IMG/VR virus record: IMGVR_UViG_2684623171_000007
Reading direction: 5' to 3' (one strand)
DNA: 20,162 bases
DNA from: a virus
Taxonomy: Duplodnaviria; Heunggongvirae; Uroviricota; Caudoviricetes
This document shows positions 7,317 to 13,888 of the stretch, in pieces. Position 1 is the stretch's first letter, and every line of letters starts with the position of its first letter. Position numbers and translations under genes: made by a program. Under the pieces are notes generated by a model. The model saw only the letters and a list, made by a program, of their open reading frames with translations, was not told the origin of the DNA and made no database searches.

Positions 7317-7439
7317 TTTAACGTATGTCGCCAATTTCCTGATGAAGGTGACTGGCGACTTGCTGTTGTATGTCCTTCTCAGAAAATTGTTTTTGAATAA
7401 CAAATAACAGGATTTTATAATCTCTTAACCTTATAACAT

Positions 7440-8675: not shown

Positions 8676-9002
8676 ATGACTAAAAATACACGTTTTTCCC
8701 CCGAGGTCCGTCAACGGGCAGTCCGTATGGTTCTGGAAAGTCAGGGCGAATATGACTCACAATGGGCGGCAATTCGTTCCATTGCCCCAAAGATTGGCTG
8801 TACACCAGAGACTCTGCGTGTGTGGGTTCGTCAGCATGAGCGGGATACCGGGGGCGGTGATGGTGGACTCACCACCGCTGAACGTCAGCGTCTGAAAGAG
8901 CTGGAACGTGAAAATCGTGAACTGCGCCGCAGTAACGATATCCTTCGCCAGGCTTCCGCTTATTTTGCGAAGGCGGAGTTCGACCGCCTCTGGAAAAAAT
9001 AA
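8676..9002 (+). CDS. IS629-like transposase OrfA (copy 2)
   Basis: ORF track 108 aa; differs from copy 1 OrfA at 4 residues (V16, G24, R34, T67 versus I, D, C, S). Confidence 0.85.
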
Positions 9003-9678
9003 TGCCGCTGCTGGATAAGCTGCGTGAGCAGTACGGGGTCGGACCGGTATGCAGTGAACTGCATATTGCCCCGTCAACGGATTACCACTGTCAGCAACAG
9101 CGACATCATCCGGATAAACGCAGTGCCCGTGCGCAGCGCGATGACTGGCTGAAGAGAGAGATACAGCGCGTATACGATGAAAATCATCAGGTGTACGGTG
9201 TGCGTAAAGTCTGGCGCCAGTTGTTACGCGAAGGTATCAGGGTGGCCAGATGTACAGTGGCGCGCCTCATGGCGGTTATGGGACTTGCCGGTGTTCTCCG
9301 GGGTAAAAAGGTCCGTACTACCGTCAGCCGGAAAGCCGTTTCCGCAGGCGACCGCGTAAACCGTCAGTTCGTGGCAGAACGTCCTGACCAGCTGTGGGTG
9401 GCTGATTTTACTTACGTCAGCACATGGCAGGGCTTCGTCTATGTGGCGTTCATCATTGATGTGTTTTCCGGATGTATCGTGGGGTGGCGAGTCTCATCGT
9501 CTATGGAAACGACATTCGTGCTGGATGCACTGGAGCAGGCGTTGTGGGCCCGTCGGCCGTCCGGCACAGTCCATCACAGTGATAAAGGTTCTCAGTATGT
9601 ATCACTGGCCTATACGGAGCGACTAAAAGAAGCAAAACTGCTGGCATCAACAGGGAGTACAGGTGACTCGTATGACAA
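9002..9678 (+). pseudogene. IS629-like transposase OrfB, C-terminally truncated (copy 2)
   Basis: ORF track 9002..9691 (229 aa); the last residues (..DSYDNVFY*) are read from non-IS sequence, so the conserved C-terminal ~70 aa of OrfB are missing. Confidence 0.8.
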
Positions 9679-9710
9679 TGTATTTTATTAGTTCACATAC
9701 AATTATCAGA

Positions 9711-10025
9711 TTATTCTGGGAATAAGGTCTGAATATTCTTTTTTATTTTATAAAAATTGCATTCAACTCCGCTAGGCTGATTAGCCTGGTATGTTTCCTT
9801 GATGCTAACGGTATTGAAGGGGAGGTTGTCCTCTGGCCATTCGGCCATCCAGTAGGCAAATGCTGGGTTGCGCTTTATGAGTGCTAGCCCAGCCAGAAAG
9901 GCCGCGCGTTGCGCGCGGCTGCGTTCGGAGGCTGGCAGGCTATCGAGGTAATTGCACGCCTCCTGTTCACTCTTGACGGCGGCGGGCTTCAGATAGAAAC
10001 TTATCCGTCTGGTTGGTGTCGTCAT
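9711..10025 (-). CDS. parR: ParR/StbB-like centromere-binding partition protein (ribbon-helix-helix)
   Basis: ORF track 104 aa; starts 5 bp after the parM-like stop. N-terminal half (RRISFYLKP...LDSLPASERSRAQRAAFLAGLAL) resembles ParR of plasmid R1 as I recall it (..TIAFKLNP..LDSIPQGERSRLNRAALTAGLAL..). The C-terminal third is divergent and encoded by AT-rich DNA next to the IS junction. Confidence 0.6.
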   Translation of the reverse strand: MTTPTRRISFYLKPAAVKSEQEACNYLDSLPASERSRAQRAAFLAGLALIKRNPAFAYWMAEWPEDNLPFNTVSIKETYQANQPSGVECNFYKIKKNIQTLFPE

Positions 10026-10029
10026 TGGT

Positions 10030-10989
10030 TTACTCCTTGTTCATTGCGTACAACCCATTAACCAGAGCAAACTGTGGCACCCCGTCCGCGATGAAAGTCG
10101 CATTAACTCCGCAGGCTTCGCGGATAGCGGTTGCCACAATCTCCGCCCCGCCACCGACAACCATCACCCGCCCGTAACCCGAAAAAACCGCCAGCGCGCG
10201 GATCACGCGTTGTTTCAGTGTTTCTTCCTTTTCACGAATAACCGCCATCAGGCTGGCGTAATGCGCGTCATTGTGGATGTGCTGGCGCAGCCAGGCTTCA
10301 TCATGGCGATGTTCGATAATGGTATTGGCGATGTGGTGACTGGTGCGCATACCGTTAGTGGCCATCACCGACAGTACGGCATCGGCCATCAGAGAAACGC
10401 CTACGTGTGGATCGCAAAACACCTGGCTGATACCTGCCAGTTGCCCCTGAACCTTTGCCACATCCAGCGTGGTTCCGCCCAAATCCACAATCAGCAGGGA
10501 TTCAAACGGACTCATGTCAGCCAGTGCCTTAAAGCCAGCAGGAATGGATTCAGGCATAACCCGTACGTTACGGATAGTGAATGCTTCGCCGTTCTGGTAC
10601 TCCACCGGGCGCATGACGTTCGCTTTTTTGCGGTTGATGTTGGCCATGTCCGGCTGTGCGTTTGTATCGAAATACTCGCTCAGTGGCAGGGTGACAACCA
10701 CATCCACTTCCTGTGGTGTGATGCCTGATTTGACCAGCGCGTGATGAATGGCAATTACATTCACATCGCTGTACTGGTATTGCGTGTCGGTCGTCTGGAC
10801 AAAGCGATCGCTGACCGGATCAAAACCATAGCGCACGCCATCAAGCATGTAGTTCGCGGGCTGCGTGCCACCGAATGGCGCAGACCATTCCGACTTGAAG
10901 CTGTTCGGGCTGATGGCGTTGCGGCGTTCGCCGTTCTCAGTCCATGCCAGCTTGATGTTGGTGGAGCCGTCGTCGATACAAATTTTCAT
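10030..10989 (-). CDS. parM: ParM/StbA-like actin-type partition ATPase
   Basis: ORF track 319 aa with AAGGA Shine-Dalgarno. Family-defining blocks IDDGSTNIKL, ISPNSF, YQYSDVNVIAIHHAL, MPESIPAG, LIVDLGGTTLD, GVSL, FSGY..VMVVGGGAE and LVNGLY align with R1 ParM/StbA as I recall it. Confidence 0.85.
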   Translation of the reverse strand: MKICIDDGSTNIKLAWTENGERRNAISPNSFKSEWSAPFGGTQPANYMLDGVRYGFDPVSDRFVQTTDTQYQYSDVNVIAIHHALVKSGITPQEVDVVVTLPLSEYFDTNAQPDMANINRKKANVMRPVEYQNGEAFTIRNVRVMPESIPAGFKALADMSPFESLLIVDLGGTTLDVAKVQGQLAGISQVFCDPHVGVSLMADAVLSVMATNGMRTSHHIANTIIEHRHDEAWLRQHIHNDAHYASLMAVIREKEETLKQRVIRALAVFSGYGRVMVVGGGAEIVATAIREACGVNATFIADGVPQFALVNGLYAMNKE

Positions 10990-11023
10990 GTCGCTTTTCC
11001 TTATGTTGATTAATTAATCGGTT

Positions 11024-11132
11024 ACAGGATTTTTAAATCCCGCTTTTGCCTGTTTTGTGCGCGCTTCATATATCGCGGCGCGTTTTTTGCTCATTTACGG
11101 GATTTGTGAGTCCCGTTTCTGTCTGTTTTTTG
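11024..11132. repeat. two ~36-bp direct repeats, each with internal dyad symmetry, upstream of parM (candidate parC-like centromere/operator or tandem hairpins)
   Basis: Copy 1 ~11024-11059 ACAGGATTTTTAAATCCCGCTTTTGCCTGTTTTGTG; copy 2 ~11097-11132 ACGGGATTTGTGAGTCCCGTTTCTGTCTGTTTTTTG (about 27 of 36 positions identical). Cores GGATTT..AAATCC and ACGGGA..TCCCGT are inverted repeats followed by T-rich tracts. Copy 2 lies inside the last ~20 codons of gene A. Confidence 0.4.
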
Positions 11133-13888
11133 TTTCCACTGGTCAGGCCACCCCGCAGCAGGTCTGCTTTGCGGCTGGCGCGTTCAGTGGTTTCACTGAT
11201 TCTCTGTGCGTGCTCTGCGTCGCGGATGGCGCGCAGCATGTCAGAAAGCACGGTAACGGGTGTTTTCATGGTGTTCTGGTCCTGCTGAAGTGTGGATGCC
11301 AGGCGTGCGGCGGCTTCAGGGTCTGATGCCCCCAGCTGTGCCAGATAGCTGGCGACCGGGTTATGGCGGATCTCCGTGCTGCTTACGCCATGATTACGGC
11401 TCAGGCGCTGCCAGAGCTGCGTGATTCGGCTGTCCGGGCGGGTATCCGGTTTGCGTACAATTTCAAATCCCTGCGGTGCAATGATGCTGCCGTCAACGTA
11501 CAGACTGCCGCCCCGTAACAGGTGCTGCATCTGTTGTTCACCGATATGCAGGCCGAGAGATTCAGCAGACTCCCGCCATTCTTTAGCGAGTAATTCGTGG
11601 TTATCAGGCAAAGGCCGCTGCTGTTTGCGGCTCTGTGTCCAGCTCTGCATTTCATCACTGCTGTTTTTTGCCTGTTTGTCACGAAGCGAACGCATCAGCG
11701 CCCGGCGTTCGTGCCGTTTCAGTGAGCGCATCCATTCGTTCACGTCAACGCCGTCAGGAAGCTGCGGCCACGGTGCTGGCCGTTCTTCCGGCTGTTCTGT
11801 CCCGTTGTTGTCCGTTTCCTGTACACGGGGACAGTTATTGCCACGAGTCCAAGGGGCGGCAGGGCCGCCCTGAAGGTCAAAACCATTTTCGCGGGCGCTG
11901 TCTTCTACTCCCGGTTTACGTCTTACCAGCTTCCAGTTATCCGGGTGCGTGCACACACGGGAGGATTCCCCGATGAGTGGTGACCAGATCCCGTAAATCT
12001 GTACGCTCTGTTCGCCGTAATCGTTCAGCTCATCTGCGAGGTCGTAGGCGGTGCGAATCAGGTAGTCCTTGCGTGGAACAAGTACGCCTCCCTGTTTCTC
12101 AATGTAGGTGGTAAAACATCCGGCATCAGCGGCAGCAAGAACCGCATCCATTGCGTCATCCTTCAGCCGTTGCGGGCCTTCCGGGTTGCGTGCCATCTGG
12201 CTGGCAAGGCGACGCAGTTCACGCCACACCTGACGGGAGGGGATGCCAAAGAACTGGAACTGGCGGACCCGGTGAAGGCGCGCCCAGCCAATGGCGCGTT
12301 CCACGCTCTCGGTCATTGATTTTCCGGTTTCGTGGTCAACGCGTGGTTTGCCTGTTTTCGGGTCGATGCCATCCACGGCGCGGCTGTCCAGGTTTTTTCC
12401 GATGTAGGTGGCGATGTAGCTGGTTGGCGTGCCTTTTGAGCCGTCGACATACTCCGCCTTAAAGCGCGGAGTAATATCATCGCCCAGCTCGTGACGATCT
12501 TCCTGAATGGCAATATCGCGGGTGTGGGACACAATGGTGTCGATTTCTTCCGGATGAGCAAAGACCATCATATGCCAGTGCACGGTGCCGTCATGGTGAG
12601 GCTCCACCGTGCGGATGCCATACCAGCGCAGGCCGTCGCGGTTCAGTTTCTTGCGGACCGCCGCAAAAAACGTGTTAACCAGGTAATCGCTGGAGTCGCG
12701 CATGGTGGCCCCGTTCCATTTGGGATTCGGATGACCGTTCTCTGTTGTAGCGTGGTATTTTGACGGGCAGGTGACAGTCAGAAACACCGCTTTGTCGCCA
12801 CGGGCTTCGGCCAGAAGTTCCAGCCCCTTCATGGTGGCCATCATTTCTGCCTTACGGTGAACCGGGTTACTTACTCCCGCGTAATACACTGTCTCGAGAT
12901 CAATCGTGAACCCGTCTTCGTTTTCCAGCATGAAACTTTTCAGGAAATCGCGTGTTTTCTCGCGCTGTGCGCGAAACTCGCTTAACGCGTCCTGGCTCAG
13001 ATAGGGCGATGTTTTTCTGGAAACCAGACAGGCGGCGCGGAGTTGTTCTTCTCTCCACTCGCAACGTAACAGCCACAGTTTGCGTTTCCACCATTCCGCA
13101 CAGGTCAGGCGAAGGATTGCGCCCGGCAGCAGCTCCGTGTCCGGTTCGTTCCTCCGGTCTTTGTCTGTTGTCAGTGCGTCATAATGTGGAGGCATGGCGT
13201 GCAGGTGTAACGCCATGCGGGCCAGCATCTGATACGCCTTCAGCGTTACATCCATGGTCAGTTCGCCATCGGTCGCGCCAAAGCCATCGCAGAGTTTTTC
13301 GAAGGTGCTGCTGAACATCGCCGCCGTCATGGTGGCCAGCGTCTGTATCTGGTGTTTGTTGAGCTGCGGCAGGTAAAGCAAATCGTCCAGGCGTTCGCGT
13401 CCGGCAAGGGAGCGATAACCCTGTGTCAGCCAGCGGTGATCGGTGCGCTCCAGACGTTCGAATATTTTGCGCAGGTTTCCGCGCGCGTAGCGTTCAGCCT
13501 GCCAGCTCTTTTTGCCTTTCTGACGATCGGCTTCCTGTTTTTTGCGCAGGAAGGAGAGGTGGCGAATAAGCGGATCGCGCAGATAGGACGGCAGCAGGCG
13601 CAGCGAGGCCATGGCTTCATCCACCGCACCGCGTGCCTGTTTTCTGGCGTCTCCTGCCAGTGTGATGGTTTTGTCCTGTTTTTCCTGTGCGTCCAGGCTT
13701 TTATTAATCAGGTTGCCCAGCGGCGTTGCGGAGAACGCCGCATCAGCCATTTCCTGGCGGCGCTCGTTCTCTACCCGGTAGGCATCCAGCCAGGAGGAAA
13801 GCGCGGATTCAGGAGCGGGGATCCCCGTTCCTTCACGCCCCACTGCGTGGCGCGGTTGTTGCCAGTCCCTGATGTACTCTGCCGTCAT
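11066..13888 (-). CDS. A: replication initiation endonuclease (P2 gpA-like, HUH rolling-circle initiator)
   Basis: ORF track 940 aa. Contains an HUH-type motif (DGTVHWHMMVF) and a downstream tyrosine motif (TPTSYIATYIGKNLDS), the arrangement established for P2 A-family initiators. Sits at the distal end of the early operon as in P2. It is longer than P2 A as I recall it (~760 aa), so the real start or C-terminal tail may differ. Confidence 0.8.
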   Translation of the reverse strand: MTAEYIRDWQQPRHAVGREGTGIPAPESALSSWLDAYRVENERRQEMADAAFSATPLGNLINKSLDAQEKQDKTITLAGDARKQARGAVDEAMASLRLLPSYLRDPLIRHLSFLRKKQEADRQKGKKSWQAERYARGNLRKIFERLERTDHRWLTQGYRSLAGRERLDDLLYLPQLNKHQIQTLATMTAAMFSSTFEKLCDGFGATDGELTMDVTLKAYQMLARMALHLHAMPPHYDALTTDKDRRNEPDTELLPGAILRLTCAEWWKRKLWLLRCEWREEQLRAACLVSRKTSPYLSQDALSEFRAQREKTRDFLKSFMLENEDGFTIDLETVYYAGVSNPVHRKAEMMATMKGLELLAEARGDKAVFLTVTCPSKYHATTENGHPNPKWNGATMRDSSDYLVNTFFAAVRKKLNRDGLRWYGIRTVEPHHDGTVHWHMMVFAHPEEIDTIVSHTRDIAIQEDRHELGDDITPRFKAEYVDGSKGTPTSYIATYIGKNLDSRAVDGIDPKTGKPRVDHETGKSMTESVERAIGWARLHRVRQFQFFGIPSRQVWRELRRLASQMARNPEGPQRLKDDAMDAVLAAADAGCFTTYIEKQGGVLVPRKDYLIRTAYDLADELNDYGEQSVQIYGIWSPLIGESSRVCTHPDNWKLVRRKPGVEDSARENGFDLQGGPAAPWTRGNNCPRVQETDNNGTEQPEERPAPWPQLPDGVDVNEWMRSLKRHERRALMRSLRDKQAKNSSDEMQSWTQSRKQQRPLPDNHELLAKEWRESAESLGLHIGEQQMQHLLRGGSLYVDGSIIAPQGFEIVRKPDTRPDSRITQLWQRLSRNHGVSSTEIRHNPVASYLAQLGASDPEAAARLASTLQQDQNTMKTPVTVLSDMLRAIRDAEHAQRISETTERASRKADLLRGGLTSGNKKQTETGLTNPVNEQKTRRDI

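Follow-up and report, generated by a model that had tools for sequence, protein, structure and literature searches.

A putative parC-like repeat element at the A/parM junction of a P88-like prophage of Escherichia coli

Gene content and repeats of the A/parM junction

The stretch of DNA analysed here (hereafter the window; 20,162 nucleotides, IMG/VR record IMGVR_UViG_2684623171_000007) is a P88-like prophage (Xuanwuvirus, Peduoviridae, P2-family) of Escherichia coli O157:H7. The element under study is a pair of repeats at 11022-11132, located between the replication gene A and the partition genes parM and parR. It is a real, conserved cis element, most likely the parC of a prophage-borne ParMRC module. 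The region from 9679 to 11400 is 96-98% identical to the phages vB_EcoM-569R5, P88, P884B11, PhiR44_2 and Citrobacter phiSM, and chromosomes of E. coli O157:H7 match the A/parM junction at 100% identity. The order on the minus strand is gene A (13888..11066), a gap of 76 nt, parM (10989..10030) and parR (10025..9711); the annotations of P88 and related phages show the same order.

Gene A (11066..13888, minus strand) encodes a P2-family replication endonuclease of 940 aa (PF05840, Phage_GPA, 2.4e-131) with 30% identity to P2 A over residues 77-800; its stop codon is at 11066-11068. The product of parM (10030..10989, minus strand) is an actin-like segregation ATPase of 319 aa (PF06406, StbA_N/ParM, 1.8e-82; PF21523, 3.5e-69), which matches the R1 ParM structure 1mwk with an E value of 7e-93. 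The gene parR (9711..10025, minus strand) encodes a predicted ribbon-helix-helix centromere-binding adaptor of 104 aa (PF10784, 7.7e-29), with a weak match (E 0.012) to the ribbon-helix-helix domain of pB171 ParR (2jd3). The leader of parM (10990..11021, minus strand) contains a conserved ATTAATCAA motif at 11005-11014 and a Shine-Dalgarno sequence, AAGGA, at 10998-11002. The ATTAAT and the AGG-type ribosome site of the leader are also present in the related prophages of Hafnia and Plesiomonas described below.

A repeat search of the junction revealed one family, consisting of two direct repeats of 38 nt at 11022-11059 (copy 1) and 11095-11132 (copy 2), which are identical at 30 of 38 positions (79%) and lie 73 bp apart from start to start. 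These are the same sequences as the two related repeats, about 73 bp apart, that the first-pass annotation had placed at 11024-11059 and 11097-11132. When 10900-11300 was shuffled 300 times with its dinucleotides preserved, the best direct match over 38 nt had 22 identities on average and 25 at most, versus the 30 observed. Copy 2 (minus strand; sense strand CAAAAAACAGACAGAAACGGGACTCACAAATCCCGTAA) is the upstream block of the putative parC and is located within the last ~22 codons of A; it covers A codons ~-22 to -10, in agreement with the overlap with the 3' end of A that had been noted before. Copy 1 (minus strand; sense strand CACAAAACAGGCAAAAGCGGGATTTAAAAATCCTGTAA) is the downstream block and lies in the 76-nt gap between A and parM. 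The two blocks are separated by a core of 35 nt (11060..11094, minus strand; sense ATGAGCAAAAAACGCGCCGCGATATATGAAGCGCG), which holds the stop codon of A and is more variable than the blocks. The candidate parC thus extends over 111 bp (11022-11132), two 38-bp blocks plus the 35-bp core, and parM starts 33 nt downstream of the end of the repeats.

Each repeat contains a dyad of the form CGGGAyT-N-AATCCyG. The dyad core of copy 2 (11097..11116) reads ACGGGATTTGTGAGTCCCGT on the plus strand, with the half-sites GGGA and TCCC around a variable 4-nt centre. The dyad core of copy 1 (11024..11043; plus strand ACAGGATTTTTAAATCCCGC) is a degenerate variant in the window; in most relatives copy 1 has a perfect 8-bp dyad, ACGGGATT-TCAG-AATCCCGT. 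The pattern ACGGGATT-N4-AATCCCGT, with up to three mismatches allowed, has three matches in the 20-kb window, namely the two repeats and a weak match with three mismatches at 7407, compared with a chance expectation of ~0.05.

Co-inheritance and conservation of the repeats

The repeats travel with parM and parR and not with A. Searches started from the C-terminus of A returned only 4 close loci in the genome-contig scan and mostly fragments at the protein level, but the protein search led to a homologue of A without par genes (locus L111). The last 700 nt of this gene are 95% identical to the A gene of the window, and a methyltransferase and an AAA ATPase follow in place of par. Homology to the window ends at ~11165; the tail of A is unrelated and the repeats are absent. 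It had been proposed that the par cassette was inserted into the end of A, a proposal that would fail if A homologues lacking par carried the same C-terminal tail and the same repeats. L111 carries neither, and the insertion is supported by two further loci, L070 and L099. In L070 the C-terminus of A is replaced and followed by an unrelated open reading frame (ORF) of 155 aa, and the 5' edge of copy 2 is the exact point where homology of the P88 type sets in again; the foreign ORF runs into copy 2 and terminates at the same TGA stop with the tail ..EKQTKTGFTNPVNEQKTRSDI. L099 has a second, different upstream context, where the upstream ORF ends at the TAA that closes copy 2 and the repeats and par are kept. 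Both dyads are retained in L070 and L099 behind an ORF other than the usual end of A.

The 5' part of copy 2 in L099 (795-815, IMGVR_UViG_3300000059_000115) differs from the P88 type, the dyad and the remainder being kept. By eye, it contains ~11 extra nt (ACAGACA-AATAATGAACA-AAAGCGGGA), which is roughly one helical turn.

The par-less A homologue lacks the DNA that encodes the last ~33 codons of A (11066..11165, minus strand, ending in ..DLLRGGLTSGNKKQTETGLTNPVNEQKTRRDI before the stop codon). Slips of +1 and -1 in the A-run before copy 2 alter the tail of A and retain the DNA motif, e.g. in phage Chuche. A precise deletion of 73 bp between the copies was found in L040 (1430-1476, IMGVR_UViG_2657245439_000011), which is left with one hybrid repeat and an A gene that ends in ..KKQTKTGFKNPVTD before the stop codon, 24 nt upstream of parM. 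This locus could serve as a ready-made single-site mutant. The tail of A is without constraint at the protein level, as frameshifts, the 73-bp deletion and a different ORF change or borrow it. Based on the homology boundary and on the variants with a foreign ORF, a frameshift or a deletion, the low-complexity tail of A is considered to be a by-product of the DNA of the par module. The recombination boundary of the gpA-gpQ cargo hotspot would accordingly be placed ~33 codons before the stop of A, leaving the upstream block inside the 3' end of A. With a hotspot boundary inside gene A, the C-terminal ~33 residues of the annotated endonuclease are cargo-encoded and variable, which is useful for the annotation and engineering of the gpA-gpQ hotspot. 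The A/par junction is ancestral, not recent, being common to all 14 of 14 Xuanwuvirus phage records and to 1304 of 5426 complete E. coli genomes.

Among 89 loci of close relatives, which comprise 48 distinct sequences, neither copy shows any change in its GGGA and TCCC half-sites, and the run AAAACAG.C..AA upstream of the dyads is nearly invariant. The 4-nt centre of the dyads varies (TCAG, TAAA or TGAA in copy 1; CACA, CACG or TACG in copy 2), and the 35-nt core is the most variable part. In Salmonella, where the C-terminus of A is 86% identical, the repeats are almost unchanged, and the core and the adjoining codons of A are altered. Loss of one copy was observed in only one of ~90 loci, despite the direct repeat.

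Homologues of ParM with 54-62% identity are located between gpA and the portal gene in P2-type prophages of Hafnia, Plesiomonas, Serratia and Enterobacter. The Plesiomonas locus (ParM 62% identical) contains GCGGGACAACAAAAACCCG and GCGGGACAACACTAACCCA 72 bp apart, the first of which overlaps the end of gpA; the Hafnia locus (ParM 62% identical) contains GGGATTGAGGAAACCC and GGGTTCATTAAATCCC 73 bp apart. Both retain two GGG-N10-CCC dyads in diverged flanks. These dyads have stems of only 3-4 bp (GGG/CCC) with loops of 10 nt, and form neither a stable hairpin nor a T tail. The N-terminal strand of ParR, TRR(I/V)SFYL, is common to the three lineages with GGG-N10-CCC dyads (the window type, Hafnia and Plesiomonas); the ParR proteins of Serratia, R1 and IncL/M have a different N-terminal strand, and their loci have different repeats. 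IMG/VR scans with the Hafnia and Plesiomonas ParM as query yielded 0 and 1 loci, respectively.

Prophages of the Serratia/Enterobacter P2 type (L105, 3880-3945; L106, 3383-3450; L110, 1085-1150) carry parMR with inverted arms upstream, consisting of two arms of 14-20 nt (GGGAAC..ATAGAAAAAT and ATTTTTCT..GTTCCC) around a core of 26-28 nt. This looks like a second style of centromere within the same phage-borne ParMR clade.

Variation of ParR was studied in ~45 distinct sequences located downstream of parM in ~90 loci (L001-L096), including a few truncated or mis-called ones. The N-terminal sequence MTTPTRRISFYLKP is identical in all full-length variants but one (MATPT...). The first 14 residues (residue 2 differs in one variant) and the last ~8 residues are conserved, with a C-terminal tail of the form NI(R/Q)xxFP(E/K/D), and the linker between them is hypervariable. 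In the ParR proteins of R1, pB171 and pSK41 the N-terminal ribbon-helix-helix domain binds DNA and the C-terminal peptide binds ParM. The conservation pattern fits this division of labour, and ParR looks like a working adaptor. No link was detected between ParR allele and repeat variant: phage 569R5 combines a window-type ParR with a P88-type copy 1, and P884B11 has the reverse combination. The missing link fits the near-invariant N-terminus of ParR.

At the DNA level parR is a mosaic (9711-9971, codons ~19-104): at ~9971 an identity of ~98% to P88 gives way to sequence that no longer aligns, in a setting where ParM is 98-100% identical. Candidate explanations for the variability of the linker are a relaxed, disordered linker, diversifying selection or recombination. 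In one E. coli contig (L112, 4854-7635, JZQA01000170.1) parM is present in fragments, two StbA_N pieces of 130 aa and an intervening ORF of 311 aa; in some prophages the gene may thus be disrupted or duplicated.

Interpretation as a probable centromere and alternatives

Judged from its sequence and setting, the element is probably a parC-like centromere bound by ParR, the upstream half of which overlaps the 3' end of A. Of the functions considered in the first-pass annotation, that of a putative ParR binding site is the best supported, on comparative grounds: the repeats lie directly upstream of the adjoining parM-parR genes, they are co-inherited with parMR (L070, L099 and L111), distant relatives have kept the dyads and their spacing, and the two-block layout is known from parC sites. 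The repeated unit consists of two clusters around a core, formed by two large units and not by arrays of short iterons. Conservation together with the cognate ParR extends across diverged relatives, in three lineages.

The closest described counterpart is the parC of plasmids R1 and R100 (Dam & Gerdes 1994; Hoischen et al. 2008). In R1, two sets of five 11-bp iterons surround a promoter core of 39 bp, 159 bp in total; ParR binds each set and leaves the core free (PMC2241845). The element of the window resembles this site in its location directly upstream of parM-parR, in two repeat blocks around a core of ~35-39 bp, and in an A-rich sense strand. ParM is a clear homologue of R1 ParM, and ParR belongs to the same Pfam family (PF10784) as the R100-type ParR, with ~31% identity. 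In an R100-like locus (L012) the blocks are spaced by 32 and 72 bp and flank the promoter; the 72-bp block spacing resembles the 73 bp of the window. The element differs from R1 parC in having two 38-bp blocks with an internal inverted dyad (111 bp) instead of two sets of five direct 11-bp iterons (159 bp). Moreover, the core of R1 carries the par promoter, whereas the core in the window has no sigma-70 match; the upstream block lies within the coding end of the preceding gene; and the host element is an integrated phage and not a plasmid.

The closest plasmid relatives of ParM, with 52-53% identity, are encoded by loci of the IncL/M (L010) and IncFII(K) (L009) types. The IncL/M locus likewise has two blocks of ~34 nt upstream of parM, at a spacing of exactly 73 bp, and the same architecture of ParR. 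Its blocks, however, are direct repeats rich in T that lack GGGA/TCCC dyads, a clear promoter (TTTACA-17-TAATAAT) is located between them, and the N-terminal strand of its ParR reads NRKCSFYI instead of TRRISFYL. The 35-nt core of the window occupies the place where R1 and IncL/M parC carry the par promoter. Overall, the element agrees with the two-block architecture of these sites in its location, its size and the spacing of its blocks.

By analogy with the ParMRC systems of R1, pB171 and pSK41, 11022-11132 would serve as parC in a type II ParMRC module that the P88-like P2-family prophage carries as cargo. The ribbon-helix-helix domains of ParR dimers would contact both blocks, which have a CGGGAyT...AATCCyG dyad at their centre. 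The spacing of 73 bp corresponds to ~7 helical turns, which would place both blocks on the same face of the DNA. Through the C-terminal tail of ParR, which is conserved, the ParR-parC complex would then be captured by ParM-ATP filaments at their ends, and these filaments would push sister DNA circles apart. As for expression, a consensus scan of the minus strand from 10990 to 11600 detected no sigma-70-like promoter; candidates found by eye are weak and unconserved, e.g. TTTAAA-17-ATTAAT overlapping copy 1. No recognisable sense-strand terminator was found between A and parM. For these two reasons parMR is probably read through from the early replication operon, and ParR bound to parC might damp this read-through.

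Several observations weigh against a centromere. The element has only two large blocks, versus the 4-10 short iterons of characterised parC sites. The promoter that was not found in the scan is part of the comparison with R1, where parC doubles as promoter and operator; an internal par promoter is nevertheless not a universal requirement for a centromere. The Serratia- and Enterobacter-type relatives have a different layout of inverted blocks. The single hybrid repeat of L040 indicates that two copies are perhaps not essential, or that this prophage is defective. Phased A-tracts, which would be in keeping with curved centromere DNA, were looked for as well and are not significant: the ~10-bp AAA periodicity is the strongest in the window, yet it was found in 145 of 1000 shuffles of the region. 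Finally, the N-terminal strand of ParR barely varies in close relatives, so that co-variation of protein and site is judged across few lineages.

According to the first-pass annotation, each repeat forms a hairpin on the plus strand with a T-rich tract behind it, and the repeats could, alternatively or in addition, be plus-strand terminators that block antisense transcription from the insertion sequence (IS). Such intrinsic terminators would stop antisense transcription through parR-parM, from the IS next to parR or from convergent cargo genes, before gene A. Copy 2 bears out the description (-10.2 kcal/mol, z -3.45, flagged as terminator-like) and copy 1 does not (centroid -3.3 kcal/mol, z +0.57). 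In most relatives the plus strand of copy 1 is ACGGGATTCTGAAATCCCGTTTTTGCC, which has a fair terminator shape, and cargo genes downstream of parR are often oriented towards parR. Nevertheless, we consider terminators unlikely. No plus-strand gene ends at the repeats, the nearest would be more than 1.3 kb away, beyond parR, and the sites are antisense to A and precede parM. Copy 2 satisfies the terminator scan and copy 1 does not; the T runs are interrupted (TTTCTGTCTG.., CTTTTGCC..); the common change of CCC to CCT in copy 1 creates an A.C mismatch on the plus strand; and compensatory changes were observed at 0 of 16 stem pairs. Stem and U-tail are not maintained in relatives, since the dyads of Plesiomonas and Hafnia have no stable stem and no T tail. 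The repeats are equally conserved in phages without an IS, so that an explanation related to the IS is ruled out and the proposed block against IS-derived antisense transcription is not sustained.

The repeats might also act as hairpins in the RNA of the sense strand, as elements of processing, stability or translation control that set the expression of parM relative to A. This is likewise improbable. Both copies fold on the sense strand, at -8.7 and -9.7 kcal/mol (z -4.2 and -2.5). Pairing in sense RNA survives the one-sided changes seen in copy 1, where 23 distinct sequences have G.U in place of A-U and 11 have it in place of G-C, and both hairpins would be part of one transcript, as no terminator separates A and parM. 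There are no compensatory double changes among the 48 distinct sequences, although this absence of covariation is uninformative rather than negative. A frequent change of T to C in copy 2 introduces a C.A mismatch in 17 of the 48 distinct sequences, and the stems are not kept in Hafnia and Plesiomonas, where only GGG/CCC remains. The hairpins are located 30 to 100 nt upstream of the ribosome site of parM, without occluding it. The constant spacing of 72-73 bp is expected of a constraint on the face of the DNA, not of two independent RNA hairpins.

A functionless scar, left by a local duplication during insertion or exchange of cargo at the gpA-gpQ hotspot or by a small coding duplication, is less probable again. 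The copies are in the same codon phase and encode similar peptides (NKKQTETGLTNPV in A and TKQAKAGFKNPV in an ORF of 26 codons at 11094-11014), they recombine, as seen from the deletion in L040, and the boundary of variable DNA is close by. However, dyads and spacing survive in lineages in which ParM is only 62% identical and the flanks have diverged, a copy was lost in just one of the ~90 loci, and the half-sites are invariant while nearby positions vary. The small ORF at 11094-11014 (MSKKRAAIYEARTKQAKAGFKNPVTD) was rejected as a gene or coding duplicate: it has no ribosome-binding site, and five of the seven changes in Salmonella are non-synonymous.

The position at the end of A, the hairpins often recognised by HUH endonucleases and the location of the P2 origin inside A would fit a role in the replication origin, or as a further site bound by the A (HUH) endonuclease, a reading that is very improbable because the counterpart of the P2 nick region lies ~700 bp upstream of the repeats, which are moreover absent from the close par-less homologue L111 and present in L070 behind a different C-terminus of A and an extra ORF. 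This counterpart (11831..11868, minus strand, inside A) is identical at 30 of 38 positions to the P2 sequence around the annotated nick (GCGGCCCTGCCGCCCCTTGGACTCGTGGCAATAACTGT) and represents the probable replication origin of the prophage; the repeats were ruled out as the origin used by A on the basis of this mapping.

Prevalence and possible role

Of 5426 complete E. coli genomes, 1304 (~24%) contain matches to the junction, at 1443 places, 1441 of them chromosomal and 2 on plasmids. A complete actin-type segregation module is thus present in about a quarter of the complete E. coli genomes, inside integrated P2-family prophages. Rousset et al. 2022 devote one sentence to a putative plasmid partitioning system, present at the gpA-gpQ hotspot in about a quarter of the P2-like prophages of E. 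coli, and suggest that it may serve plasmid maintenance (PMC9122126). The genes and the hotspot are the same as those described here, and the prevalence agrees. In contrast to the suggested plasmid maintenance, 1441 of the 1443 places are chromosomal. A term search of the text of Rousset et al. 2022 returned no mention of a centromere, of repeats or of an overlap with gpA (PMC9122126), and full-text literature searches turned up no paper that describes this centromere. The system is of a known kind, in which such a site is expected; for these prophages, which are very common in E. coli, a likely centromere has not been described before. The likely centromere, two GGGA/TCCC dyads 73 bp apart, is a short and mutable DNA target, by which the role of the module becomes testable.

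Replication of the P2 type yields monomeric circles. Tentatively, and with considerable doubt, the P88-like ParMRC could be regarded not as a device for plasmid maintenance but as a system that acts after infection or induction to separate or position such circles. Co-transcription of ParMRC with the early operon is suggested by the lack of a detected promoter or terminator between A and parM and by the overlap of the centromere with the end of A. If true, such a role would explain the near-exclusive location of the module in integrated prophages in ~24% of the E. coli genomes, and would resemble that of AlpAC of CGP3. The AlpA/AlpC/alpS system of this Corynebacterium glutamicum prophage is reported to act in the transport and replication of viral DNA (PMC5539076). 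Both systems combine a prophage-borne actin-like filament, a DNA-binding adaptor and a cis site; they differ in actin-like protein, adaptor and host phylum, and the likeness is one of biological setting only.

One record deposited as an E. coli plasmid, pZ1323PEC0009-2 (L011, NZ_CP148288.1, circular, 34,461 bp), is a complete P88-like genome with gpA, parM, parR, terminase and capsid genes, and may represent an extrachromosomal form, either plasmid-like or induced. P88-like A/par sequences with 92-95% identity to those of E. coli were also detected in two assemblies labelled as Firmicutes, L014 ('Vagococcus sp.', NZ_JBQPOM010000071.1) and L016 (a metagenome-assembled genome of 'Planococcaceae'); these labels most likely result from contamination or mis-binning. 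On the far side of parR the window contains an IS3-family (IS629-like) element at ~8676-9691 on the plus strand, with its right end near 9678, ~33 nt past the stop of parR. Its transposase ORFs face parR, and the segment 9600-9678 is 100% identical to IS629 in Shiga toxin (Stx) phages.

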